NCBI GenBank assembly: GCA_012519205.1 | Contig: JAAYQR010000028.1 | Coordinates: forward strand, 4,411-68,410 | Direction: 5' to 3' | DNA: 64,000 bases | Source: Candidatus Epulonipiscium sp. | GTDB taxonomy: Bacteria; Bacillota; Clostridia; Lachnospirales; Defluviitaleaceae | In this document: one piece after another, positions 7,142 through 21,310 of the stretch | Layout of the letters: each line of letters opens with the position of its first letter | Numbering within the stretch: position 1 is the first letter of the stretch | Position numbers and translations under genes: made by a program | Notes under the pieces: generated by a model | What the model saw: only the letters and a program-made list of their open reading frames with translations | Told to the model about the DNA's origin: nothing | Database searches by the model: none

Positions 7142-8305
7142 TTACATGGAATCATGTCGATATCTGTGAATCCATCTTTTTACTAATTCTAGCAAAGAGC
7201 CTTGATAATCTTTTTGTTTACCTTGTTCTTTTTGTATACGGGCTTGTTCGAGTTTTGCTCCTTCATATTCATCGTTAATTTTAAGTGCTTCTTGGATTGC
7301 TCTAGATGCATCTTCTAGTTTTTTCTTTTTTCTATATAGTCTTGCTAATCTGACCCAAGCTAAAATATAATTCTTATTTATTTCTATACTTTTTTGGGCA
7401 TAATCTATTGCCAATTCTTCTTTGTTCCAGCTTTCATATAGATTCGAATATTCCAACCAATACTCTTCTTTCCTAAGCTTAGAAGGGATTTGTTCTAGAT
7501 AGTCTTCTGCTAGTTCGTATTGCCTTTTACCTATATATAGCCTTGATAATCTTATATAACTATCATAATCATCACCTTTTTTAATAGACCTTTTATAAGA
7601 CTCCACTGCCTCATTTTCACTGCCTTGATTGTTATACAGTTCTCCGTAGTAAAACCATATTAGTTTAGAATCCTCCATAGCTGCTGCTTCATTAAGATAT
7701 TCTGCTGCTTTTTCATAATCTGTTTTAAGTATATAGAGTTCTGTTAGATTTAAAAGTATAGACAAATTATTAGATTCTTTTTCATTTGCTTTGGTAAGAA
7801 AATAGGCAGCATCATCATACCATCCTAAGTGCATACAAGCAATTCCCATATTATTATAAACCTTGGAGTTTTCATCAAAGACTATGGCTTTTTTATACCA
7901 CTTTATTGCTTCCTCTGGCTTTTTTAAGGACATAAAATAATCGGCTTTTTCCTTACACTTTTCCCACTCTGCTTTATTTTCCCATTTGAAAATTTCTTTT
8001 CTTAGAGTATCTAATTCAGATTCATAAAAATAATCAATAAGATCTAGAAACCCAATATACTGTTCTGTTATGGATTGCTGCCCATCTTTTATCCTTTTTA
8101 TCTGTCCACTTATATGAGATAAACCTAATTCCACTCTTACCCAGTCTTCTAGTTTTCCCATTAAAAAGTCATCAATAGACTGCTTCCAATAATGGTAGCA
8201 GTGATAATACAATTCTTCTATGGAATATACCTTAATTTTAGTCATATAAAAATAGTATGGTCTCTCCACTGTTTCAGGAGAGACGCTAAGTATTAATGAG
8301 GACAT
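7142..8305 (-). CDS. TPR-repeat protein, last gene of the multi-Hsp70 operon
   Basis: About 7 degenerate 34-aa TPR units, e.g. AIKWYKKAIVFDENSKVYNNMGIACMHLGWYDDA, AVESYKRSIKKGDDYDSYIRLSRLY and AIDYAQKSIEINKNYILAWVRLARLY. Preferred start is ATG 8305 (GAGGTG upstream). The track start GTG 8314 lies 3 nt after the upstream stop. Confidence 0.8.
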   Translation of the reverse strand: MSSLILSVSPETVERPYYFYMTKIKVYSIEELYYHCYHYWKQSIDDFLMGKLEDWVRVELGLSHISGQIKRIKDGQQSITEQYIGFLDLIDYFYESELDTLRKEIFKWENKAEWEKCKEKADYFMSLKKPEEAIKWYKKAIVFDENSKVYNNMGIACMHLGWYDDAAYFLTKANEKESNNLSILLNLTELYILKTDYEKAAEYLNEAAAMEDSKLIWFYYGELYNNQGSENEAVESYKRSIKKGDDYDSYIRLSRLYIGKRQYELAEDYLEQIPSKLRKEEYWLEYSNLYESWNKEELAIDYAQKSIEINKNYILAWVRLARLYRKKKKLEDASRAIQEALKINDEYEGAKLEQARIQKEQGKQKDYQGSLLELVKRWIHRYRHDSM

Positions 8306-8317
8306 CTTATTCACCTC

Positions 8318-10396
8318 TTATAATCGTACCAATTCTGCAATGTCCATTGCTATATTGTCTAAGATATCTGTAAACTTATCTTGTAAATCATAATATTTTC
8401 CATTAGGCTTTGTTAAAGGATCATAGCTCTCTATGCTTAATTTATCCTTTCTTGCTACAACATAAGTTGTTATACTACTTTCCCTTAGCATAGCACAAAT
8501 CTCAGGAACATATTTCCCATCTTCCGTAGGTACATGGGGTGGGGCATCAGTTATAAGTATAAATATGTTTTTACCACTTTTGTCCACTTTAGAAGTTTTC
8601 AAAAGTTCTATACCTGTACCTACCGCTTCCAAAGAAGATTCGGGTATATCCCCTCCATAGGTTCTTGGAATATTTTTAACTTGTCTTTGGAATTTTTCTA
8701 CTTCATTTGTGAAGTTATAGACACTGGGGTTTTCTTTTTCTCCTAAATCACCAAAACCTATAAGGCCCAATTGGAAACCTATACCTTTTCGACTTAGTAT
8801 ATTTGAAAATTCTATGGCCCTATCCTTAACTCCATTAATATAGGTGTCCATGCTCCCTGTAGTATCTATTATAAATACAATATTCATATTTTCGGCAGAA
8901 GTAGTCGAAAGCTCTCTTTTAGGTGGCGGCATAACCTTGGTCCTATCAAATTCTGCTCTTTCAGTTTTTCCTGTAGATAAATCTTTTACAAATACTTCGA
9001 AAAGATTATTTTCATCTATGGCATAGGTAATTTCTAGCTGGGTAGTACCCTTAAGCCCCGTAAGCATTACACTACCTATATATTTTCTTTCTTCTTCATT
9101 ATCTTGCTCCCATTGATAAACATCAACCTGTACCGAAGAAGCCCCGGACATACTGGCAAAGTTTCTATCAGATATCTTTGCCGGAATAGAACTGCCCATG
9201 GGGATAATGGGAATTAATTCTTTTTTCATGGTATCTACATTTATAACCGCTTCCGTACCAAAAATTTGGCGGGTGATTTGCCCCACCTTTACATTGCTGT
9301 TAGGAAGGTGGATGAGATAATTATAAATCGATGCCCCCATGGCTACACTCTTTGCAGGGTCCGTAGCACGATAGGGTTCCTTAATGTATCCCCCAACCAT
9401 TCTTTTTACCATAGGAATTAGGGTTGAACCCCCAACTAAGATTACCTTTGATATTTCGTCGGGTTCCCTTCCTGCCCTTTTTAGGGCCTCTTGTATAATT
9501 TCACGGCTTCTGTCTATATATTTTCTAATTAAGGCTTCAAATTCTTCCCTTGTTAACTCCATTACTAGATTTTTGGGGACCCCTTCATGAATTATAAGGG
9601 GATGAATCCTTATGGCTACTTTGTTAGTTCCTGAAAGTTTCTTCTTGGCTTGTTCCGCTTCTTGCTTTAGTTTTTGAACCACTCTTTTTCTTTCTACAGT
9701 TTCTAACTTGTCTAGATTAATCCCTGTCTCCTTTAAAAAATTCTCTTTCATCAGGCGTATAAGTTCACTGTCAAAATCATCTCCCCCAAGATTCATATCT
9801 CCGACATCAGATAATTCTTGAAATATTTCCTCCCCATTTTTATCTTGGGATACCTTTAGGACACAAGCATCAAAGGTTCCCCCACCTAAGTCATATACTA
9901 AAAGGGTTTGGGCATACCCCTGCCTATACCCATATTCTATTGCCGCTGCTAGGGGTTCTGATAAAAGATGAACATTCTTAAATCCTGCCATCTCCCCTGC
10001 TTTTTTTGTTGCAAATATCTGTCTGTCGTTAAAATATGCTGGGTGGGTTATGACTACTTCATCAAAATTTTCTCCACTTTGATTTTCTGCTGCTTTTTTT
10101 AACTTTTTTAGTATTTCGGCACTTATTTCTTCCGGGAGTTTTTCTAAGGCTCCTACTTTGATTTTTTCCGATTGTCCCATGAATCTCTTGACAGAAATCA
10201 CGGTGCTTTCTGGATATATGATTGCCCCAGCCTTGGCCTCACTGCCTACTATAATCCCTTCTTCTCCATAGCACACAACAGAGGGAAGGATTTCATCCAC
10301 TCCATCTATCTTTACAATTTCCATTTCATCTGTTTTATCTTTATATATGATTGCTGCCGAATTGGTGGTTCCTAAATCTATTCCTAAATAACTCAT
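8318..10396 (-). CDS. Hsp70-family ATPase (NBD + SBD-beta, no lid) fused to a C-terminal von Willebrand A domain
   Basis: Hsp70 motifs IDLGTTNSAAI, VYDLGGGTFDACV and LVGGSTLIPMV. SBD-beta-like LTGLKGTTQLEITYAIDENNLFEVFVKDLSTGK. The last 189 aa (8321-8887) begin MNIVFIIDTTGSMD and contain YGGDIPESSLEA and ILITDAPPH, which is a vWA fold with a MIDAS-like DxTxS. Confidence 0.85.
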   Translation of the reverse strand: MSYLGIDLGTTNSAAIIYKDKTDEMEIVKIDGVDEILPSVVCYGEEGIIVGSEAKAGAIIYPESTVISVKRFMGQSEKIKVGALEKLPEEISAEILKKLKKAAENQSGENFDEVVITHPAYFNDRQIFATKKAGEMAGFKNVHLLSEPLAAAIEYGYRQGYAQTLLVYDLGGGTFDACVLKVSQDKNGEEIFQELSDVGDMNLGGDDFDSELIRLMKENFLKETGINLDKLETVERKRVVQKLKQEAEQAKKKLSGTNKVAIRIHPLIIHEGVPKNLVMELTREEFEALIRKYIDRSREIIQEALKRAGREPDEISKVILVGGSTLIPMVKRMVGGYIKEPYRATDPAKSVAMGASIYNYLIHLPNSNVKVGQITRQIFGTEAVINVDTMKKELIPIIPMGSSIPAKISDRNFASMSGASSVQVDVYQWEQDNEEERKYIGSVMLTGLKGTTQLEITYAIDENNLFEVFVKDLSTGKTERAEFDRTKVMPPPKRELSTTSAENMNIVFIIDTTGSMDTYINGVKDRAIEFSNILSRKGIGFQLGLIGFGDLGEKENPSVYNFTNEVEKFQRQVKNIPRTYGGDIPESSLEAVGTGIELLKTSKVDKSGKNIFILITDAPPHVPTEDGKYVPEICAMLRESSITTYVVARKDKLSIESYDPLTKPNGKYYDLQDKFTDILDNIAMDIAELVRL

Positions 10397-12033
10397 TCTT
10401 CTCCCTCCAGTACTGTCTTATTAAATCGGCTTGGATCAAAGGGCTGCTTAAATCCGCTAGGGGGATACTCTTCTCCGAATCCTAAATCTTCAACTGCACC
10501 TTTTACAAGCCCCCCTTCTTCCTCTACTGCAAGGGTTACCTGCAACTTAGTCTTACCTGATGGCCTCTTTGGCAATCCCTTTATGCCTACATCCCCAATT
10601 AACTTACAATTTTCTATGGTATCTTCTTTATCTATTCTTTCTAGAATTCTAAGTTCTAGAGTTGTCATATCTTCAAGAGTTTTCCCTGATAGAGTAAATA
10701 TATGGCTTTTTTTTGCCAATGAATAGGGGGTCCCCCTTCTTATCATGGTAAAAAAAGATTTCCTTGTGCCATGATCTACTTCGAGTCCAATATCATGGGG
10801 AACTGTAACTTCAAATTCCACTTCTACCTTTTCCGCTTCTAAATCAGGGTGGGTTAACACCCCCATTTTCATAGCTGCATAATAAGTAGCACCCAAGGAG
10901 ATATCTAGAGCTGGTCTTTCTGATGTGTATATTTTATTTTCTTCATTAAATATACCTATTAGCATATCTTTTATCCAAGGCATAGTAGATGAACCCCCTT
11001 CAAGAAGTACCCTATCTATGTCGCTTGGAAGCAGTGCCCCAGTATAAGCTTCTCTTAAAGCTTTTAATACAAGTTTTCTCGTTTTTTCTATAAAGTCATG
11101 GATTAAATTTTCAAATTGCTCCCTTGTTATTTGTTCTACAAATGGCGGAATACAAAAGGTAAAAGGAATTCTAAAGCTTTTGACCCCGGATAATCTTTCT
11201 TTTGTTTCCCTTGCTCTCATTATAAGTTCTGCTTGATTTTCTGGTGTCATAGCATCCTTATTTTGTCCTGTTTTATTTTCTATATATAAATAACATTGTT
11301 TTAGGAGGACTTCGTCGATATTATCTCCCCCGTGGCGTGCTTCCCCTCCTTCGCTTATTACCTGCAGCTTGATGCGACAATCATCTTTTTCGACTACATG
11401 GAATAGAGTAATATCTAAAGTCCCTCCCCCAAAATCAAAAACCATGATTTTTTCATCCTTGGATAATTGATGTCTGAAATTATATGCTAGGGCCGCTGCC
11501 TTTGGTTCTTCTATAAGGCAAATCAACTTATCTTTCAATCCCGCTAATTCACAAGCTCTCATCGTAGCCTTTTTTGCCCCATCATCAAAATCATAAGGTA
11601 CAGAAACTACGCACCCTGCAATCTCTGCATTTGGGTTCATGTTTTTACAATGACTTATCAATTCTTTTAAAATCATTGCCGATATCTCTTCCGGAAGATA
11701 TTCTTTATCTTCTATTTGTATTTTTTCGTTGGTTCCCATTTTTCTTTTGATTGATCTTATGGTGGTTTCCGGGTAAATTTTCATAGACCTATAGGCTTCT
11801 TCTCCTATAACCCATTCCTCTTCGTCCCCTTCTTCTCCCCTATATTGAGCTACTGAAGGAAGAGGAATCTTACCAAATCCATTGCTGATGTCTATGGGCT
11901 CGGGTTTTTTGTTATTATTATCCCAGTAACTTATTACTGAGTTGGTTGTCCCTAGGTCTATTCCTAGGATATACCATTCTTCGGGGAGATCTTTTTGTTC
12001 TTCGATTTGTTTCTTGTATTCTTCCCAGTTCAT
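10393..12033 (-). CDS. Hsp70-family ATPase paralog, lidless (546 aa)
   Basis: Motifs IDLGTTNSVIS, VFDFGGGTLDITLF and LLEGGSSTMPWI. SBD-beta-like IKGLPKRPSGKTKLQVTLAVEEEGGLVKGAVEDLGFGEEYP. 4-nt ATGA overlap with the downstream gene. Confidence 0.85.
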   Translation of the reverse strand: MNWEEYKKQIEEQKDLPEEWYILGIDLGTTNSVISYWDNNNKKPEPIDISNGFGKIPLPSVAQYRGEEGDEEEWVIGEEAYRSMKIYPETTIRSIKRKMGTNEKIQIEDKEYLPEEISAMILKELISHCKNMNPNAEIAGCVVSVPYDFDDGAKKATMRACELAGLKDKLICLIEEPKAAALAYNFRHQLSKDEKIMVFDFGGGTLDITLFHVVEKDDCRIKLQVISEGGEARHGGDNIDEVLLKQCYLYIENKTGQNKDAMTPENQAELIMRARETKERLSGVKSFRIPFTFCIPPFVEQITREQFENLIHDFIEKTRKLVLKALREAYTGALLPSDIDRVLLEGGSSTMPWIKDMLIGIFNEENKIYTSERPALDISLGATYYAAMKMGVLTHPDLEAEKVEVEFEVTVPHDIGLEVDHGTRKSFFTMIRRGTPYSLAKKSHIFTLSGKTLEDMTTLELRILERIDKEDTIENCKLIGDVGIKGLPKRPSGKTKLQVTLAVEEEGGLVKGAVEDLGFGEEYPPSGFKQPFDPSRFNKTVLEGEE

Positions 12034-12154
12034 TATTTCACTCCTTTTACATGGATAGATAGTTATGGGATTCCATGCGGATTTTGTGGTTTATAATGTT
12101 AAATTAGTTGAGGTGATTATGCAAGAATGGTGGTGGCTATATTAGGTATTTATG

Positions 12155-13726
12155 TTATAGTTGGATAATTGCAGTTTGGGTATAATCTGTGGCGGGAAAC
12201 ATTTCTCCGAATCCACAGTCCTTTATGATTACCTCTATTTGGTCATATTGTCTAAATCCTAAGGTAAATTTTAGCCTTAGGGTTCTTGAAGGTCTATCGG
12301 GTAAGCCTTCAAGGTTTATGGTATGTAGGGGTGTTATCTCCCCCCTATCATTTCTTTTGTATACAGGTATACATAATGTGTTTTCCGTTTCCCCATCCAA
12401 TATAAATATTTTTGGTTTGGGTTTTTGCCACCAAAACGTATTTTTTTCTATTAGGGGTATGAAACAAGGTGCCTTTCTAAAGGCTCCATTAATCCCTATA
12501 TCCCAGGTTAACCTATGGTAATCTGTTAATTTAATCATTGTCTCAGGAATGATTCCCAAGTAAGAAGCGGCACCTATACATGCCCCTAGTGCTACCGTCC
12601 CTTCTGCTTCTTTTGGGTATATGATGGAACTTCCTAGAAATTCGTTTTCTAAAAGTTCCTTCATCCAGCTCATTTCAAAGCCGCCCCCAACGGCTATTAT
12701 TTTGTGTATTTCATTTTTATCGATTACTCCGTTGATTGTTTTATTTAACAATTTAGAAATAAATTCTTTAATACTTTGTGAAAATGGCTCTATGAGCCTA
12801 TCCATATCCTCAATAGTAACGGACTTTTGGAAGGCAGGATATACAAAGTTAAAATATAGTTTTGTTGTTTTTTTCTTATAATAGTTTTGGAATAATAACC
12901 CTTTATTTTGATATGCAAAGACCTCAATTTGGTGGAGAATTTCATCACTAATCCTATGTTGAGTTAGCCCTGTTTCTTCACAATAAAAATTAACAAATAA
13001 CTTTTTTAATAGTTTATCAAGTTTTCTTCCTCCCAAGGTTGAATCAAATAAATAAGATAATGTCTCCGCATTAACACTCCCTTCATTGGAAGGATTAACC
13101 CTAATAAGTCCTCCCCGTATCTGTTCTCCCCCATAATCGATAAATAAAACCTTTTCTTCACTGTTTAGAGAACGCTCAAAATACAAATATCTTAAAATAC
13201 ATTCTCTATAACCCATTAGATTTATTAAGGCCTTACTAAGCCCTGCAATTGAAAAAGCTCTTTCTAATTCTTCCCTAGCACTTTCCGAAAAATAATCCGG
13301 TACTGCGGCTATAACCCCTACTATATCTGCATTGGGGTTTAGGTTCTTACACATATCTATTATTTCTTTAATGTATCTACTAAGGAGGTTTGGTATATTC
13401 ATGGGTTTACCACTAATATTTATAAGTTCCTTAGTTCCTAATTTTGATAAGATATTATGAATTGTGATATCATCAAAATATCCCCTATTAAGTAGGGCAT
13501 ATTCACCATAGACCCATTCCCTATTTTCTGGAATGTATTGCATAACCGTTGGTATGGAGGGATTCCCATAACCACCACTCATATCGATTAATTCTGCCTG
13601 CTTCCTATTAACATTCCAAATGGCTATTTTGGTTGCTTTGCTTCCTATATCTATTCCTAGTATGAATTTTGTTTCGTCATTAAAGTCCATTGATGAAATT
13701 TGTTTTTTGAATATTTTCCAGCTCAT
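12155..13726 (-). CDS. Divergent Hsp70-like paralog with degenerate nucleotide-binding motifs (523 aa)
   Basis: Collinear with its neighbours, but phosphate-1 is IDIGSKATKIA, phosphate-2 is FIDYGGEQIRGG and the adenosine motif is AVGGGFEMSWM. The C-terminus LEGLPDRPSRTLRLKFTLGFRQYDQIEVIIKDCGFGEMFP parallels the 546-aa paralog. Confidence 0.7.
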   Translation of the reverse strand: MSWKIFKKQISSMDFNDETKFILGIDIGSKATKIAIWNVNRKQAELIDMSGGYGNPSIPTVMQYIPENREWVYGEYALLNRGYFDDITIHNILSKLGTKELINISGKPMNIPNLLSRYIKEIIDMCKNLNPNADIVGVIAAVPDYFSESAREELERAFSIAGLSKALINLMGYRECILRYLYFERSLNSEEKVLFIDYGGEQIRGGLIRVNPSNEGSVNAETLSYLFDSTLGGRKLDKLLKKLFVNFYCEETGLTQHRISDEILHQIEVFAYQNKGLLFQNYYKKKTTKLYFNFVYPAFQKSVTIEDMDRLIEPFSQSIKEFISKLLNKTINGVIDKNEIHKIIAVGGGFEMSWMKELLENEFLGSSIIYPKEAEGTVALGACIGAASYLGIIPETMIKLTDYHRLTWDIGINGAFRKAPCFIPLIEKNTFWWQKPKPKIFILDGETENTLCIPVYKRNDRGEITPLHTINLEGLPDRPSRTLRLKFTLGFRQYDQIEVIIKDCGFGEMFPATDYTQTAIIQL

Positions 13727-13742
13727 AGCTTCTCATCCTCAC

Positions 13743-15665
13743 CTATTTGCCTGCAACTACATTGGCTTTTAATACGATTTGATTGTTATATTTATATCCC
13801 CTGTTCATGGTCTTGATGATTTCACCCTTTTCAAATCCTTCTTTTACTTCAGCCATCAGAACTTCATGTTCTTTCCCATTAAATTTTTCATGGGTCTTAG
13901 GGTTTATAAATTCAACTTTAAATTCCTCTAGCAGGTTTTCTAGTTTTAGGGTAAGGGCATCAATATTTTCTACATAAGAAGCTACTACCTCTTCATTTTC
14001 ATTTCTAAGTCTAGATACCGAATAGTTTATTATTTCTTCATAGGTGCTCATTTCAAAAAACAGATGCTCCCTAAGATACTTTATCATTTTTTTATTAGCT
14101 TCATTTTTAATTTTTTCTACTTTTCTTCCTAGCCTTTCCATAAGGGCATCATAGCCCTCTTTGATTTCATTATCTAAAAATGCTCCTTTTTGTGTTAGAA
14201 CATCCTCTATAGGGGTATCATACTTGCTAATAAATTTATTGTATATTTCTAAGTCGATTTTTTCGTATTCTTTTTCTATCACAATAGGATCCAACTCTTT
14301 TTTTACATATTCCTCAAATTGATTGATTGTACTCTGGTATAACTCTAGGCTTTCCCTTAGGCTTTCAATTTTTATAGAAATTGTTTCAGAGATTCCTTCT
14401 ATTATAGGGGTATACTCAGCTTCTTCCGGTATATCCTTGTATAATTCCTGATTTTTATTAAACTCTAGAAAAAAATCTACTATTCTTTCTCCGGCTTCTT
14501 TGTTTATATATAAATTTTCGACTATTTCCTTTAGTAGAGCCCCTGGGTTGAACTTTTCTATATATATCTTTAAAAGTTCCTCCTTCAAGGAGCCCCATTT
14601 TTCGGTAAAGTCATTAAAATTATCAATAAACTCTAAGGGCTCTTCGGTTTTGAGCCTAAGCTTCTTTCTTACGGTGATGTCATTAATATACAATCTCATT
14701 CCTTGAAACTTCAGGTAGTTTTCAAATCCCTCTTTATCAAGTAATATTATTTTGTTAGGCTCTTTTTCTGCCTCTTTAAAGAAATCCTCTAACTCTTCGA
14801 TTTCTTTTCCTAAATGCTGATAGGCCTCCCTTATGGTATGTAGAATTTCTTGGATTATTTGCTGTTCACTACTTTCGTACTGCTCTATTTTCATTTCTTC
14901 TTCCAAGGCATTCACTTGAATCTTAATAATTGCCTCCACATTATCTTTTTCTTGTTTTATGGATTCATAGTAAAAATTGGCAGCCTTTCTTAAATGAAAA
15001 TCGTTAAGCCTTTTTATACCCTTCTCTGACCTTTTTGTATAACATTTATAAAGAGGTTCACTCATTTCTTCAATCAATAAGAGATATAATTCTCTTATGA
15101 ATTCTAGTTGTGAATCTTCACCTTTATAGATGTCCATTAATCTATTTCTTGAATTTATTAAAGTTGGGCCTATTTTATAATTAAGCCATAGCTTTTCCAG
15201 TTCATCTAACTGATTTAAGATATTTATCTTTTGTTCTGTAACAAATTTATCCTTTTCTATTTTAATTGGATTGATATTAGCCTTAGGGTCGGCTATTCCC
15301 TGATTTGCCAGCTGGCTTTCTTTAAATTGCTTAAGCTGCGACAAAAGTACGGTGCATATTCCAATCAATATTTCTTTTGCTTTTCCCGTTTTTATGTTTT
15401 CCTCATTATCATAAAATAAGTAGATTGTCCTTTGATAATGATGCATTAAGTGATCAAAGTATTCAAATATCCGCTCATCATATTTGGATAATTTATTTTC
15501 CTCAGTAAGATGATTAAGTATTCTAAGCATTACCTTCATTTTGATATGAAAAAAACATCCCTTTATACTTTGTTCAGTAAATTCATCGAAAGCCTGAAGG
15601 GTTTTTCTCCAGGCTTCGATTAATTCCTTTGACTTTAGCAAAATAGGGGGATACTCCTTAAACAT
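13743..15665 (-). CDS. 640-aa helical / coiled-coil protein ending in a GrpE-like nucleotide-exchange domain
   Basis: The C-terminal 60 aa, KVEFINPKTHEKFNGKEHEVLMAEVKEGFEKGEIIKTMNRGYKYNNQIVLKANVVAGK, align by eye with the GrpE beta domain (F-D/N-P-x-x-H-x-A ... QKGY-x-L-x-x-R-x-x-R-x-A-x-V-x-V). The preceding ~570 aa are E/K-rich helical sequence. Confidence 0.7.
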   Translation of the reverse strand: MFKEYPPILLKSKELIEAWRKTLQAFDEFTEQSIKGCFFHIKMKVMLRILNHLTEENKLSKYDERIFEYFDHLMHHYQRTIYLFYDNEENIKTGKAKEILIGICTVLLSQLKQFKESQLANQGIADPKANINPIKIEKDKFVTEQKINILNQLDELEKLWLNYKIGPTLINSRNRLMDIYKGEDSQLEFIRELYLLLIEEMSEPLYKCYTKRSEKGIKRLNDFHLRKAANFYYESIKQEKDNVEAIIKIQVNALEEEMKIEQYESSEQQIIQEILHTIREAYQHLGKEIEELEDFFKEAEKEPNKIILLDKEGFENYLKFQGMRLYINDITVRKKLRLKTEEPLEFIDNFNDFTEKWGSLKEELLKIYIEKFNPGALLKEIVENLYINKEAGERIVDFFLEFNKNQELYKDIPEEAEYTPIIEGISETISIKIESLRESLELYQSTINQFEEYVKKELDPIVIEKEYEKIDLEIYNKFISKYDTPIEDVLTQKGAFLDNEIKEGYDALMERLGRKVEKIKNEANKKMIKYLREHLFFEMSTYEEIINYSVSRLRNENEEVVASYVENIDALTLKLENLLEEFKVEFINPKTHEKFNGKEHEVLMAEVKEGFEKGEIIKTMNRGYKYNNQIVLKANVVAGK

Positions 15666-15692
15666 ATAAATCCTCCTCTTACTATCATGACT

Positions 15693-17378
15693 TTAGTATA
15701 AGTCGTCTACAGATAGCTCCGTCTCTACTCCACTAGTACTCATGCTTTTAGCCATTACCTTAAGCATATTGTCCTGTCCTATATGAAAGATTACTTTTAC
15801 CTTTTCTTCTCCCTTTGCCTTAGACGGGATACCCCTTAGGCTCGTTCCTGCAAGGCGTTTCATACCATCTTCCATTACATAGGAAGCTTTCTTTTCTTCA
15901 CTAGAGGGTCTCATGTTTTCATAAACAACTATTGCCATACTGGTTACATTGTCAAAATTAGTAACCAAAAGTTCCGCCGCCTCTATAGTAAGACCCTCCT
16001 CAGGAATATCTACACCACTTTTTACAATCTCCATAAATCTTCTACCTGATATTTCGAGCCCTAAAGGGTGAATGGTCTTTTCTTGAACAATAGGTCCCTT
16101 TACCGTAGGCATCATAATCATATTGCAGTAATGGGCTGCCCCTTGAGAAATACTTAGGGCGGGACTAATTTTTGATTTAAAGGGTTCTTTTCCAAACTTT
16201 TCTTTTATTTTCTCCCTTATTCTAGGAATCGCAGAGGAACCTCCCACTAAGAATGTTTCATCAATATCTCTAGCTTCTAAGGAGGCAGCTCTTAGACATT
16301 CATCAATACACTCAATACTTCTTTCTATTAAGTCTTCTACCGATTTCCCTTCTAGTTTACTAAATACTTCATCGGAATCCCCTAACTGGTTGATTCTTTT
16401 ATGGTTTAAAAAGGCATCCTTTGTAATTTCCATATTGATATTAATAATTTTAGGTTCCTGGATAAATGGAGCTAAAACAACTTTGGTGGATTTAGCCGAT
16501 GAAAGTCTTTCCTTAGCTTGGTTAGCTACTTGGGCAAGGCGAACTAAAGCTGTTGTTTTTTGCCGTTTTGATGCACCATCATCAGCGTTTAAATCAAATA
16601 GATTAATTTCCTCATTAGTCATTTTTTTAAATTCTTCATAAACCATATCTATTATTATTTTATCTACGTCATTTCCACCTAGATAATTGTCACCAAAGGT
16701 ACTTAGTATAGATATAGAGGGTTCATCGGTATCTGTCATCCTTATATCCAGAACACAAGCATCAAAGGTTCCGCCCCCAAAATCATAAACCAATACCTTT
16801 TTATTTTTTCTTTCGTTGACTGCATATGAAATTGCTGCAGCTGCCGGTTCTAATCTAAGGTATATGTTATCTTCATCAAAACCTGCTAGTTTTGCGGCTT
16901 CTTTTGTCATTTTCTTTTGTTTATCCGTTGAATTGGCAGGAACGGTTATTACGCAGCCTGAGAATTCTCCTGCTATATTTAGTTCCTCTTGAGCATATTC
17001 ATCAGCTTTTTGCTTAAGATACCCTAATATCTCCCCAGTCACCTGCTCGGGAGTAAATTCATACTCTTTATCATCTACCACTATTTTTACTTTTTCTTCA
17101 CTTCCTAGAAGGCGCTTTATCGATAAAACTGTACTTTGCGGATAAATTATAGCTGCTTCTTTTGCCTGTATCCCAAAAATCCTAGATAGTTTATCAGGAT
17201 CATCGGGATCCGTTTCGAATTGTACCGCCGTTGGGAAAACATTGCTTCCATCAATGGGTATGGTTTGTACTTGTCCTTCTTTAAAGTCATACACACTTAC
17301 TACTGAGTTTGTTGTTCCAAAGTCGATTCCTAAAAACAATCCTCTTTCTACATCTAATCCTAGTGTTCCCACAAGCAA
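15693..17378 (-). CDS. Hsp70-family ATPase paralog, lidless (about 560 aa)
   Basis: Motifs IDFGTTNSVVS, VYDFGGGTFDACVL and LVGGSSAIPRI. SBD-beta-like LRGIPSKAKGEEKVKVIFHIGQDNMLKVMAKS. The track start is TTG 17378. GTG 17372 has better spacing to the AGGAGG at 17387-17381. Confidence 0.85.
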   Translation of the reverse strand: MLVGTLGLDVERGLFLGIDFGTTNSVVSVYDFKEGQVQTIPIDGSNVFPTAVQFETDPDDPDKLSRIFGIQAKEAAIIYPQSTVLSIKRLLGSEEKVKIVVDDKEYEFTPEQVTGEILGYLKQKADEYAQEELNIAGEFSGCVITVPANSTDKQKKMTKEAAKLAGFDEDNIYLRLEPAAAAISYAVNERKNKKVLVYDFGGGTFDACVLDIRMTDTDEPSISILSTFGDNYLGGNDVDKIIIDMVYEEFKKMTNEEINLFDLNADDGASKRQKTTALVRLAQVANQAKERLSSAKSTKVVLAPFIQEPKIININMEITKDAFLNHKRINQLGDSDEVFSKLEGKSVEDLIERSIECIDECLRAASLEARDIDETFLVGGSSAIPRIREKIKEKFGKEPFKSKISPALSISQGAAHYCNMIMMPTVKGPIVQEKTIHPLGLEISGRRFMEIVKSGVDIPEEGLTIEAAELLVTNFDNVTSMAIVVYENMRPSSEEKKASYVMEDGMKRLAGTSLRGIPSKAKGEEKVKVIFHIGQDNMLKVMAKSMSTSGVETELSVDDLY

Positions 17379-17387
17379 TTCCTCCTT

Positions 17388-20090
17388 TTATAATAACCAC
17401 CCTACATTATTCTTTTGGTTCTCGCAAATCATTTCATCAAGTATTGACTCAACCTTATCAAATTCTAAATCATGGCTATAAATACTCGCATTGTTTAATT
17501 TTTCGTAAACCTCTTTTGGATTGCCCCTTAGTTTTTTGCAGTTATGGTTATACATTTTGACTTCCGTAAGGATAATATTGTCTTCCTTATCGATTTCTTC
17601 AATATAGTATTCCATACTTTCATTAAAAAACAAAGAAACACAAATTCCATATAAGCCAAAAGCTATAGGATACATTTTCTTTTTATTCAAGGGAAAACCT
17701 TGAATTTTATAACAAAAATAGACTTCCTTCCCCTTCTTAGTATAATGGGTAAAGGGGGTATTCTGTTCTACATACGAAAAATACGGAAATTTGTCTTGTT
17801 TTTCTTTAATAATTGGAAAAATAAATTGATTTCTTTTCATCCATTTAAAAATGGGTAGTATTGTTTCATTTTTTATTTCTATATTCATTGGGATATTTGC
17901 GTAAATATGAATAAGAGATGATCCTAATAGCATATCTTGAGTAAGTTCAAAGTTTTTTTCTAGTTTTTCTAGGGTTTTTGGTGTAACCATCTTCCCATTT
18001 ATCAAAATTTCATAGCTGCAATATAGGATAAAGTCATTTGCCATGGTGGGTTCTTTTTCATATATGTTTTGAAAAGCTTCTTCTAGTTCTTCATTCAAAT
18101 CTCTAATCCAAATCCCCTTTTGCAATATTTTTTTATCTATATCGTAGGTTGGCTTTTCTAGGAGTTTTATCATATGCCTTAAGGCATACCATTCTCCCAT
18201 ACTTCCTTTATAATTCTTAAGAACATAATCTAAAATAACTTCATCGTATTTTCTTTCTAAAATAAGATTATATGCAATCCCTGCAATATATGAATTCTCT
18301 ATGTTTAACTCTATTCCCTTTTTTACTAGTTTAAACTTTGTATCATCCCCTAATGAATCCGAGCCTTGCGCCCAAAATATTGCCTTAGTTACATCTCCCC
18401 CTTCTATTAACGCATTTATTCCGTATTCTATCTGATACGGGTATAAATCCTGTAAATCTAGAGGTTTAAAGTATGGGAATGCCTTTTCTTGTTCTTTATT
18501 AAAACTATAAAGTGTTCCTAAGGAAGCTGATATTTTTTTCCTGAAGGTATCGGACAATGCGCTATTTTCTAAGCATTCCCCCATTATCCTTACAGCCTTT
18601 ATCAAAGATAGATTTCCCATGTTTTTTGGCATTTCATTTATAAAGTATTTAGTAAGTCTAATTAGAAGGCTTGCACTCCTATAGCCTTCATCATAATACT
18701 TTAATAATAAATCTACGGGCACATCTTTAACTAATTTATTCACCCGTATTAAGTCTTTAGGATAAATGCCCTTCTGCCTCTGACCTATACAAAGAATAGT
18801 CAGCTCATCTTTTTCATGGGCAACTGCTTCTATATAAAGTATCTTTTTATCGACTATATATGTAGCCGTTGTTTCTTTTTCGCTTTCGATAACCCATATA
18901 TATTTAATTAAGGGAGATTCTACATAGACTTCATATGTAAAAAGCTGCTCAAATATTGCTTTTTTAAATAAGTTATCGTTTTCGTTTTTCTCTAGTAATC
19001 GCATATATATATCAATATAGTATTTTCCTTGTTTGTTTGCTCTTAAGGCATTTTCCCCAAAGGCAAGAATCTTATTGTAATGAATTTGAAAAAGCATCCT
19101 ATGCTGCTCATCCTTGCATAAGATTGAGTATATATAGGCAGTTAGAGATTCATTAAATTGCTCCTTAAGCATTGCTGATTGTAAAATTGATGTAGGAATT
19201 TTTACCATATCTAGCTTATGAGCTGTTTCTATATATGCCAAATGAACTCCCTTAACATAAAATTTTAAATCTATTATTGCCTCAAATACCTTAAAGGCTT
19301 CCTTATCCCTCTTATTTTCTTTTATATAGGTTGCACATAATAGTACCAAGGCCTCGCTAATACCCCATCTATTATACATTTTTTCTATATAGTCCTTGGG
19401 AATATTGAGGCTTTCTTGATTTTGATTTGCCCAGCTTATAAATAACTTTGCATTTTCCTTATCCAAAACCTCATATTTTATTGCCCATATAAAAACAGCC
19501 CTGACCATATCCTTCATATTATAAAAATAAGTGAAATCAAGACAAAGCAACCGGTATACCTCTGAATATAAAAACGGGCTCCTTAAACCATTTAGAAAAG
19601 CCTTGTCATAATAATAGGCTTGGGTTTTTTCTTCATTAAAAAATTCTCTTTCTATCATGGCTTTTATAAAAAATAATATTCCGCTATTTTCTTCTTCTAA
19701 GCAATCATCAAATATCTTAAGAGACCTTTGTACAAACATATGTCTACCTTTATAATAATCTATCAATGCCTTAAAATAATATAGGATTGCCAAAATGGTT
19801 TTGTCGGTATCATGGTAATATTTTTTGTATTTGAGTAAAGCCTTAAGGGACTTATATGCCTCATCATATCTTTCTAGTTTTATTTTTAACCAAATAAGAC
19901 TTAAAGCAATCCTTATCTCTATTGGATTTTGTCTATTAAGTTCAGATACCAATAGTATCGAATCGTTATATTTCCCCATAAGTCCATAGCTTACTGCATT
20001 AAATAGTCTTACACGATAGGCGATACGATTTTGATTGGATTTGTCTTCCCACTTATCCATTAATGTCTGCATATATCCATTCATTTTCAT
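17388..20090 (-). CDS. 900-aa protein of unknown function, with an alpha-solenoid / TPR-like N-terminal region and a mixed C-terminal region
   Basis: Long uninterrupted ORF whose ATG overlaps the upstream stop (ATGA at 20087-20090). No signal peptide, TM segment or catalytic motif that I recognise. Helical repeat character, e.g. YDEAYKSLKALLKYKKYYHDTDKTILAILYYFKALIDYYKG. Confidence 0.55.
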   Translation of the reverse strand: MKMNGYMQTLMDKWEDKSNQNRIAYRVRLFNAVSYGLMGKYNDSILLVSELNRQNPIEIRIALSLIWLKIKLERYDEAYKSLKALLKYKKYYHDTDKTILAILYYFKALIDYYKGRHMFVQRSLKIFDDCLEEENSGILFFIKAMIEREFFNEEKTQAYYYDKAFLNGLRSPFLYSEVYRLLCLDFTYFYNMKDMVRAVFIWAIKYEVLDKENAKLFISWANQNQESLNIPKDYIEKMYNRWGISEALVLLCATYIKENKRDKEAFKVFEAIIDLKFYVKGVHLAYIETAHKLDMVKIPTSILQSAMLKEQFNESLTAYIYSILCKDEQHRMLFQIHYNKILAFGENALRANKQGKYYIDIYMRLLEKNENDNLFKKAIFEQLFTYEVYVESPLIKYIWVIESEKETTATYIVDKKILYIEAVAHEKDELTILCIGQRQKGIYPKDLIRVNKLVKDVPVDLLLKYYDEGYRSASLLIRLTKYFINEMPKNMGNLSLIKAVRIMGECLENSALSDTFRKKISASLGTLYSFNKEQEKAFPYFKPLDLQDLYPYQIEYGINALIEGGDVTKAIFWAQGSDSLGDDTKFKLVKKGIELNIENSYIAGIAYNLILERKYDEVILDYVLKNYKGSMGEWYALRHMIKLLEKPTYDIDKKILQKGIWIRDLNEELEEAFQNIYEKEPTMANDFILYCSYEILINGKMVTPKTLEKLEKNFELTQDMLLGSSLIHIYANIPMNIEIKNETILPIFKWMKRNQFIFPIIKEKQDKFPYFSYVEQNTPFTHYTKKGKEVYFCYKIQGFPLNKKKMYPIAFGLYGICVSLFFNESMEYYIEEIDKEDNIILTEVKMYNHNCKKLRGNPKEVYEKLNNASIYSHDLEFDKVESILDEMICENQKNNVGWLL

Positions 20091-21310
20091 CCCCCTAAAC
20101 CAATCCTATCAACTTTCAATACCAAACTATCTTTTATTCTATATTTTTTATTGCTAACCATAAGCTCGATTATCGTTTCGCAATAAGGTTCCTTGTTCAT
20201 CCCCCATTTATCCCAACCCGTTAAGCGAACTCTAAATGGAATTTCTGCCTTTTTTGATATAAGATATTTTTTAGCCTCAAAACCAATCCAGGAATCCTTA
20301 GGAAAGATATGAACCATGGCATCTTTCCCGGTTTCGTTTTCAATTATTAGCACTCCCACATCATCTTGTTTATAGGATTTTTTAGAAAGACTTATATTAA
20401 AAACTTGCTTTTGTGTTACTATAACCTTATATGTGCTTTCCATATCCTCATGATGAATCTTGATATATCCAAAGTTAATTTTGTTTTTAATTTTATTGGG
20501 TATAATTTCATACTCAATAATAAGTTTATTTTCTTTAAAATCCTGGGCTGTAAATATGGACTTAGATAGTTTTATCCAAGACTCATTGGTTTCTAGTTCT
20601 ATATCAATCAAACCCCATCCTTTTTTGTGCAGTATTATCCCTTTTTTGTTTGGCCTCTTATCCTTAGGAGATAGTTCTACTTTCCTTATATCGTCCTCTA
20701 TCCATATGGTTGGGGGTTGCTTATTGTTTGTTAATCTTAAAAAATATTCCAATGCCCAGTCCTTTTGTGAAATTATAATAATTTGGTTATATATTTTTAC
20801 ATATTCTAAGTTCTGACTTTGATAAAGCCAAGACAAAAATCCCGGTGAACAGAATATTTCATTTGCCCGTTCCCAATTATTTTTTGCAAACTCTGTGAAT
20901 TCCTCTAGGCTGGATACGCTATTGGTTTCATCAATAATTAACATTGGTTTTTTTATTCCGATATGGTTAGAAATCTCCTGTTCTCCTCCATTTGATTCTA
21001 TTATCCAAGTATCTTCATATGTATTACCCCAAAACATATTTTTACTATCAATACGATATATGATAACCTGCACATTATCCTTCCATTCTGCAGAATTAAA
21101 ATTTTCAGGTGTAAACTCTGCATATCCTTTTTTAGAAAAAACTTTACCCTTTAAGGGAGTTCCCCCTTTGTTTTCTACTCTAAATGCCCCTGTATATATG
21201 GATTGTGATGCAATTGTTATTCTTAGATTATTAATAGGTACAAAAAGTATCGGAGGGGTTTTACTATAATCTTCCCTATTAACTTGATAAGAAGTATTTT
21301 CCAATGTCAT
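20087..21310 (-). CDS. 407-aa protein of unknown function, first gene of the multi-Hsp70 operon, beta-rich (Ig-like/beta-sandwich-looking repeats)
   Basis: Uninterrupted ORF with no signal peptide or TM segment. Alternating beta-strand-like patterns, e.g. LRITIASQSIYTGAFRVENKGGTPLKGKVFSK and VGVLIIENETGKDAMVHIFPK. GGAGG abuts ATG 21310, so TTG 21304 may be the real start. Confidence 0.5.
   Translation of the reverse strand: MTLENTSYQVNREDYSKTPPILFVPINNLRITIASQSIYTGAFRVENKGGTPLKGKVFSKKGYAEFTPENFNSAEWKDNVQVIIYRIDSKNMFWGNTYEDTWIIESNGGEQEISNHIGIKKPMLIIDETNSVSSLEEFTEFAKNNWERANEIFCSPGFLSWLYQSQNLEYVKIYNQIIIISQKDWALEYFLRLTNNKQPPTIWIEDDIRKVELSPKDKRPNKKGIILHKKGWGLIDIELETNESWIKLSKSIFTAQDFKENKLIIEYEIIPNKIKNKINFGYIKIHHEDMESTYKVIVTQKQVFNISLSKKSYKQDDVGVLIIENETGKDAMVHIFPKDSWIGFEAKKYLISKKAEIPFRVRLTGWDKWGMNKEPYCETIIELMVSNKKYRIKDSLVLKVDRIGLGG

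Follow-up and report, generated by a model that had tools for sequence, protein, structure and literature searches.

The locus and its genes

In the genome of Candidatus Epulonipiscium sp., a window of 64,000 nucleotides (the whole stretch of DNA analyzed here) carries on its minus strand at 12155–13726 an open reading frame (ORF) for a 523-residue protein of the DUF5716 family. The protein is predicted to have an Hsp70 fold, comprised of a nucleotide-binding domain (NBD) and the β-sandwich subdomain of the substrate-binding domain (SBD-β) with no helical lid, and the canonical catalytic residues are absent. The ORF begins with ATG and has a GAGG Shine-Dalgarno sequence about 10 nt 5′ of the start. 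It is one of eight co-oriented ORFs that occupy the minus strand from 7142 to 21310, with domains assigned by Pfam. Upstream of it lie DUF5717, present as two ORFs (17388–21310, with 407 residues encoded at 20087–21310 and 900 residues at 17388–20090), an Hsp70 paralog of 561 residues with intact motifs and no lid as judged by Pfam and alignment (15693–17378) and, directly upstream, a 640-residue protein with a C-terminal GrpE domain at residues 507–637 (13743–15665). Downstream lie a 546-residue Hsp70 with intact catalytic motifs, which alignment and tree identify as the sister paralog of the 523-residue protein (10393–12033), a 692-residue paralog in which an Hsp70 with intact motifs is joined to a vWA domain (8318–10396) and a 390-residue TPR protein (7142–8314), whose N-terminal domain has a homolog adjoining DUF5716 in the reduced clusters described below. 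No J-domain match was found by Pfam in any of the eight operon proteins. The sole long intergenic gap of the operon, 121 nt at 12034–12154, separates the 523- and 546-residue genes, and the latter is preceded by a strong AAGGAG ribosome-binding site.

The host genome, of 2.13 Mb and about 33% G+C, carries on other contigs a normal DnaK (on C7) and an HscC-like Hsp70 (G000:C18:43347–45011); the latter, the sixth Hsp70 of the genome, has 584 residues, intact motifs and a short lid. The C-termini of two of the active operon paralogs are acidic, the 546-residue protein ending in TVLEGEE and the 561-residue protein in ELSVDDLY, and are reminiscent of the EEVD tail that serves in TPR docking in eukaryotic Hsp70. 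The 523-residue protein ends in TAIIQL and has no acidic tail.

Overall structure of the 523-residue protein

Homology of the 523-residue protein to Hsp70 is far beyond chance. The Pfam model PF00012 (HSP70) matches residues 106–432 with 65.1 bits against a gathering cut-off of 20.6, PF18980 (DUF5716_C) scores 100.5 bits against a cut-off of 34.7, and the sequence matches BiP and DnaK entries of the PDB with an E-value of 2e-10. The AlphaFold2 (AF2) model, built with 95 homologs, has a predicted local distance difference test (pLDDT) value of 93.2 and a predicted template modeling score (pTM) of 0.90, and shows an NBD followed by a β-sandwich. In Foldseek searches the best matches of the model were DnaK, BiP and Hsc70 (E-values of 1e-33 to 1e-29; best structures 2v7y, 7kru, and 4b9q), and the match to DnaK 2v7y extends across 512 alignment columns with an E-value of 4.7e-33. 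Other fold matches include Ssz1 in the ribosome-associated complex (PDB ID 6sr6 and 7x3k), Sse1 (PDB ID 2qxl), and the Hsp110:Hsc70 complex (PDB ID 3c7n). As in canonical DnaK, Hsc70, and BiP, the NBD is of the two-lobed, actin-like type and is joined to SBD-β, and the protein is thus predicted to be a full two-domain Hsp70. It differs from them in ending directly after SBD-β at residue 523, with neither a helical lid nor an acidic insertion in the alignment and the AF2 model. The protein does not qualify as a DnaK or HscA equivalog, the corresponding NCBIfam models giving 40–46 bits against cut-offs of 620–1019 (best scores 45.7 against 708.55 for HscA and 44.3 against 822.55 for DnaK). The closest named homolog is a "DUF5716 family protein" of Defluviitalea phaphyphila with 66% identity.

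Replacement of the catalytic residues

To score the catalytic residues, the 523-residue protein was aligned with the three operon paralogs, with the two other Hsp70s of the genome (its DnaK and the HscC-like protein) and with Escherichia coli DnaK. For the E. coli sequence the length (638) and residues 8, 70, 171, 194, 199, and 201 were verified, and the DnaK of this genome yields the same alignment. A sequence-only reading of the locus had described an Hsp70-like ORF with degraded motifs, and this description is confirmed; the motif strings that it quoted are all present in the protein and its neighbor, and the residues that it had proposed for scoring divide into a kept and a lost group. In DnaK numbering, the protein keeps D8 (D26), G10 (G28), D194 (D197), G196/197 (G199/200), and G341/342, positions 341–343 of DnaK corresponding to G347–349, so that position 343, a glutamine in DnaK, is also a glycine. 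The equivalents of the Mg-coordinating residues D8 and D194 are therefore present, and they are invariant in the long-form family. Replaced are T11 (S29), T12 (K30), N13 (A31), K70 (L93), E171 (Y173), G198 (E201), T199 (Q202), D201 (R204), T344 (F350), and R345 (E351). The three sister paralogs of 546, 561, and 692 residues retain every catalytic-motif residue compared.

The phosphate-1 loop, GIDIGSKATK (residues 24–33, 13628–13657, minus strand as for all features of this protein), carries the family-invariant D26 and G28 and contains the start of the quoted string IDIGSKATKIA (residues 25–35). The segment HNILSKLG (residues 90–97, 13436–13459) presents L93 at the K70 position, and INLMGYRECIL (residues 168–178, 13193–13225) presents Y173 at the E171 position, followed by the near-invariant and family-specific R174-E175-C176. 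The phosphate-2 loop, FIDYGGEQIRGG (residues 195–206, 13109–13144), reads D-Y-G-G-E-Q-I-R compared with D-x-G-G-G-T-x-D, so that only the D194 equivalent, the invariant D197, and two glycines are retained, with E201, Q202, and R204 in place of G198, T199, and D201. In the adenosine motif, AVGGGFEMSWM (residues 345–355, 12662–12694), the three glycines are invariant, and F350 and E351 replace the threonine and the adenine-stacking arginine. The interdomain-coupling motif NTTIP of DnaK reads NTFWWQ, the replacing FWWQ (residues 431–434, 12425–12436) being near-invariant in the long forms. These changes, with K70, E171, T199, and D201 all replaced, are of the kind that abolish DnaK-type hydrolysis, a reading that the alignment supports. 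Because the canonical catalytic residues are replaced, we infer that the 523-residue protein is probably no ATPase.

Conservation of the remodeled pocket and selection

The replacements are shared by the whole family. Among 119 full-length DUF5716 homologs with 33–74% identity to the protein (the window's own entry, at 100%, apart), the equivalents of D8, G10, D194, and the GGG are invariant, the K70 position is hydrophobic in 119 of 119 and a lysine in none, D201 is replaced by arginine in 115, and R345 by glutamate or aspartate in 116. The E171 position holds an aspartate in most of the family and a tyrosine in the clade to which the window belongs. Across 95 long-form sequences 30 columns are invariant, and near-invariant residues surround the old pocket: REC after the E171 position, R204-G-G, and GGGFE. 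Since the family has near-invariant residues of its own around the pocket, "remodeled" is to be preferred to the sequence-only description as "eroded"; the loss of the canonical motifs stands, and erosion as a description of the pocket understates what has happened there.

The gene is under purifying selection. No internal stop occurs in any listed match among 142 genomes and 92 genera. The nonsynonymous divergence (dN) to the nearest complete relative, G452 of the same family, is 0.16 for the 523-residue gene and 0.055–0.068 for the active Hsp70s. The synonymous divergence (dS) is saturated, exceeding 2 in the three neighboring operon genes for which it was computable, that of the 523-residue gene itself not being computable; together with the dN of 0.16 this saturation places an upper bound on the dN/dS ratio (omega) of below about 0.1. 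These data support motif degeneration being a stable trait of the whole family under selection and not decay.

A further loss is seen in lineage L027, which has the full cluster including GrpE, and in which DUF5716 lacks G10, D194, and the GGG (DLCTDYS, EMSQNGLR, and GSGFE at the respective motifs). The pocket would therefore be dispensable even where active Hsp70s and GrpE are present. In L027 (G403:C25; 4205–7384 and 10514–11353) the Hsp70-vWA gene is in two ORFs of 198 and 494 residues, the TPR gene is in two of 123 and 195 residues, and the GrpE protein has just 279 residues. The system may be undergoing reduction in this lineage.

Relation to the 546-residue paralog

The sequence-only reading had also taken the 523-residue protein and the product of the next gene for a duplicated pair, and this is borne out. 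In blastp comparison the two share 28% identity over 534 residues with an E-value of 1e-67, compared with 1e-10 to 1e-13 for the other Hsp70s. In a maximum-likelihood tree the four operon paralogs group together to the exclusion of DnaK and the HscC-like protein (support 100/99), and in this group DUF5716 and the 546 type pair as sisters (support 100/100). Common to both proteins are the N-terminal helix, the insert IDxSGGYG, the hairpin FxFxxPPF of subdomain IIB, the MxW that follows the adenosine motif, GLPxRP, and the C-terminal tail described below, and by these sequence comparisons they are a duplicated pair. The DUF5716 branches are several-fold longer than those of the paralogs, the rate of evolution of the 523-residue type being about 2.4 to 8 times that of its 546-residue sister. 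Between bacterial families, identity to the respective counterpart in the window is 31–42% for DUF5716 and 73–79% for the three active Hsp70s.

The C-terminal tail loop

The tail loop DCGFGEMFPATDY (residues 503–515, 12182–12220, minus strand) has a counterpart, DLGFGEEYPPSGF, at residues 516–528 of the 546-residue protein (10450–10488, minus strand). It aligns with the KDKNSGKE turn of DnaK between the last two SBD-β strands and is about nine residues longer; the last strand (residues 516–522) follows it in the alignment and the AF2 model. The tail singled out in the sequence-only reading is thus a real and near-invariant hallmark of the family, with D503, G505, and G507 invariant in 95 sequences, but it is a lengthened homolog of the β7-β8 turn of DnaK and not a new appendage. 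Among about 110 representatives from a library of 1.8 billion proteins, D-x-G-F-G-E-x-(F/Y)-P is the most persistent DUF5716 motif, surviving in forms of about 420 residues that lack the phosphate-2 and adenosine motifs. The tails of the 546 type are looser, reading DMGYGTEYEP in L026 and DMGFAAEYEP in P0176. Because it persists in the most reduced forms of DUF5716, the tail may well serve as a binding element.

Distribution and constant companions

PF18980 was found in four of 401 genomes of a phylum-wide sample, all four from the order of the window, Lachnospirales; within that order it occurs in 142 of 301 genomes and 92 of 158 genera. DUF5716 is thus present in about half of the sampled Lachnospirales genomes and confined to the order in the phylum-wide sample. 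DUF5717 occurs in 146 of the 301 genomes, 139 of which carry both families; DUF5716 alone is seen in three, DUF5717 alone in seven and neither in 152. All eight genes are found in the same order in five bacterial families.

A family coded f2 has only a reduced cluster, comprised of DUF5717 of about 1190 residues, DUF5716 of 420–433 residues and a 279-residue homolog of the N-terminal domain of the TPR protein, and lacking both an active Hsp70 paralog and GrpE. No Hsp70 of the 546, 561, or vWA type was found anywhere in the f2 genomes, the only matches being to DnaK. The f2 DUF5716 lacks subdomain IIB, with 25–27 residues opposite residues 222–312 of the window protein, and its phosphate and adenosine motifs are likewise gone; the tail is retained. 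The Pfam model PF18980 covers only the C-terminal ~300 residues of the family and carries no function. With scores of about 357 bits, the f2 forms of about 430 residues appear closest to this model, and the long form in the window, of about 520 residues, differs from them in having subdomain IIB and a match to PF00012. A fourth gene in the f2 clusters (L023, 7437–8630; L028, 7723–8901) encodes a protein of 392–397 residues that has no counterpart in the operon of the window and gives weak matches to membrane-protein families (DUF2207_C and holin-like).

In genome G551 (L031, 4392–6569; G551:C4) a single ORF of 725 residues fuses DUF5716 (residues 16–435) to a TPR homolog, whose residues 445–631 match residues 1–178 of the window TPR protein with an E-value of 2e-15. 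The fusion is made by a 13-residue linker that begins right after the last SBD-β strand, a few residues past the tail. Such a naturally occurring fusion speaks for physical contact of DUF5716 with the TPR protein, and the two constant companions of DUF5716 are DUF5717 and the TPR protein.

The two DUF5717 ORFs of the window overlap by 4 nt at 20087–20090. The two-ORF form is also found in four other bacterial families, and because it recurs in several families it would be a natural state and not an assembly frameshift; DUF5717 is a single ORF of 1326 residues in G452, of the same family, and a single ORF of about 1190 residues in family f2 (DUF5717 loci at L024, 15054–19034, and L023, 10811–14404). 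At L030 (G432:C26, 8770–11650) DUF5716 lies apart from DUF5717, which is on another contig. It is flanked by a transglutaminase-like gene on one side and a transposase of the PD-(D/E)XK family on the other, and ppx/ppk lie upstream. This cluster appears to have been broken by rearrangement.

A probable non-catalytic subunit of a proposed multi-Hsp70 machine

By analogy with Ssz1 of yeast, the 523-residue protein is probably a fixed, non-catalytic Hsp70-fold subunit of a multi-Hsp70 machine. It would have originated by duplication of the neighboring 546-residue Hsp70 type, followed by loss of the hydrolysis machinery (K70, E171, T199, D201, T11–T12 and the adenine contacts) with the two-domain fold kept, giving up the ATPase cycling of DnaK for a role as a fixed subunit. 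DUF5716, the giant DUF5717 and the TPR protein would form a constant core, in which docking, or the holding of a peptide, would probably fall to the β domain with its lengthened C-terminal GFGE-x-F-P loop. Here, as in most Lachnospirales families, the core would be served by the three active lidless Hsp70s and the GrpE-domain exchange factor of the same operon, which may represent an ATP-driven module added around it. Gene neighborhood and one gene fusion point to a physical complex of the protein with DUF5717 and TPR.

Several points weigh against such a role. Every protein–protein contact in it is deduced from gene neighborhood and the one fusion. The DUF5716 branches are long, and the placement of the reduced forms is possibly affected by long-branch effects. 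The loss of canonical residues is no proof that nucleotide binding or hydrolysis is lost, D26, G28, D197, G199, and GGG347–349 are invariant in the long-form family, and a ligand could still be bound in the old pocket, which would be lined by the near-invariant polar residues R174-E175-C176, R204, and E351.

The sequence-only reading had suggested that the 523- and 546-residue proteins form a heterodimer of a weakened and an active subunit, perhaps docking through their shared GFGE tail; the form considered here is an obligate one. The genes are adjacent in every full cluster examined, in five bacterial families, and their products are sister paralogs with a common N-terminal helix, inserts, hairpin, MxW, GLPxRP, and tail; DnaK in its ATP-bound state forms NBD-mediated dimers and Hsp110-Hsp70 forms NBD-NBD heterodimers, which count in favor of such a pair. 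However, the f2 genomes keep DUF5716 with its tail in the presence of DnaK and no 546-type paralog, and the 546-type tail is less conserved than that of DUF5716. Because f2 keeps DUF5716 without such a paralog, a heterodimer with the 546-residue protein cannot be the obligatory or general function of the family, and the obligate form of the proposal is unlikely. A heterodimer in the lineages with a full cluster, such as that of the window, is possible and would be compatible with a fixed, non-catalytic subunit.

The main remaining alternative is that the nucleotide site has been rewired and remains functional, either as a conformational switch that binds ATP or another nucleotide or for hydrolysis by relocated residues (R204 for K70, and an aspartate or glutamate near the E171 position), regulated by the GrpE-domain protein encoded upstream. 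The pattern of conservation in the 95 long-form sequences fits this, with D26, G28, D197, and GGG347–349 invariant and REC174–176, R204, and E351 near-invariant, and most long-form members keep an acidic aspartate at the E171 position. In DnaK, subdomain IIB is the lobe to which GrpE binds, and in DUF5716 it is retained wherever GrpE is retained and deleted in f2, where GrpE is absent. On the other hand, the clade of the window has a tyrosine at the E171 position, throughout the family an acidic residue stands in place of the adenine-stacking R345, L027 has lost G10, D194, and the GGG in a full cluster with GrpE, and the family persists after loss of all pocket features. A rewired site is, on balance, improbable.

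An exchange factor like Hsp110, in which the degenerate Hsp70 would bind the NBD of an active paralog and release ADP, is suggested by the presence of Sse1 (PDB ID 2qxl) and the Hsp110:Hsc70 complex (PDB ID 3c7n) among the fold matches, and Hsp110s are relatives of Hsp70 that act without need for hydrolysis. Hsp110 depends on the binding of ATP and on a long lid that carries an acidic insertion, whereas the 523-residue protein is lidless and has other residues at the nucleotide contacts; an exchange factor, the GrpE-domain protein, is already present in the operon, and in family f2 there is no Hsp70 paralog on which DUF5716 could act. Such a function is highly unlikely. A decaying copy on its way to a pseudogene, for which motif loss and a rate of evolution 2.4 to 8 times that of the sister could speak, is effectively refuted by the intact frames in every listed match from 142 genomes and 92 genera, the 30 invariant columns, the very confident AF2 model, and a dN of 0.16 with saturated dS. 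A role in anti-phage defense was considered and rejected: PADLOC gave no match for the 523-residue protein and only weak, likely noise-level matches for its neighbors, and the cluster is vertically conserved and syntenic across bacterial families.

Comparison with known systems

A fixed, non-catalytic subunit has its nearest functional analogue in Ssz1, the atypical Hsp70 of the yeast ribosome-associated complex, where it is found with Zuo1 and its hydrolysis is not used. Ssz1 serves as a stable structural partner to a protein outside the Hsp70 family and works together with an active Hsp70. It resembles the 523-residue protein in having an Hsp70 fold with a shortened C-terminus and no lid, as reflected in the fold matches to 6sr6 and 7x3k, and dispensable hydrolysis would be a further likeness, suggested here by the residue loss. 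The two proteins differ in that Ssz1 is eukaryotic and ribosome-bound, has a J-protein partner and still binds ATP, whereas the operon of the window has no J-domain protein, and DUF5717 and the TPR protein appear to act as the partners. Identity to Ssz1 is just 13–16%, and the likeness is therefore independent, an analogy and not orthology. Hsp110, Sse1, and Grp170 are also derived from Hsp70 and act on or with Hsp70s without needing hydrolysis, and Sse1 is among the fold matches. From Hsp110 and Grp170 the 523-residue protein differs in having neither lid nor acidic insertion, in the replacement of the ATP contacts, and in the GrpE-type factor of its operon.

Among bacterial systems, the conflict systems centered on GAP1-N2 GTPases include modules of an HSP70, GrpE, and an NBD-only HSP70 (Kaur et al. 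2020, PMC7159879). The likeness lies in operons where an Hsp70 and GrpE occur together with a second, atypical member of the Hsp70 family and with TPR or vWA parts (PMC7159879). In those GTPase-centered systems the second Hsp70 has no peptide-binding domain, whereas the atypical protein of the window keeps SBD-β; the cluster of the window is also vertically conserved across an order, with no above-noise match to defense-system models. As the cluster has no GTPase, its assignment to a GTPase-centered HSP70/GrpE conflict system (PMC7159879) was rejected.

Significance

The family is catalogued only as a domain of unknown function (DUF), and full-text literature searches found nothing relevant on DUF5716, DUF5717, or a multi-Hsp70 operon in Clostridia. 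Non-catalytic relatives of Hsp70 such as Ssz1 are textbook cases in eukaryotes, and the same searches found no description of a bacterial counterpart. In a bolder form of the proposal, to which we give slightly less than even weight, DUF5716 would be the first bacterial Hsp70 pseudo-enzyme, a duplicated Hsp70 turned into a permanent, nucleotide-independent clamp whose GFGE-x-F-P loop nucleates a DUF5717/TPR scaffold. In most Lachnospirales this scaffold would be driven by three lidless Hsp70 motors and a giant GrpE with no J-protein, and family f2 would have discarded the motors and stripped the clamp of subdomain IIB.

About half of the genomes sampled carry the family, in an order to which major gut and digester bacteria belong, and what appears to be a dead copy stands at the center of an operon with three very highly conserved extra Hsp70s, a private GrpE, and no J-protein. 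Knowledge of the binding partner of this copy would give a handle on the client and the purpose of the whole machine. The natural series from active through pocket-dead to lobe-deleted Hsp70 may offer a route to study how an allosteric ATPase becomes a scaffold.

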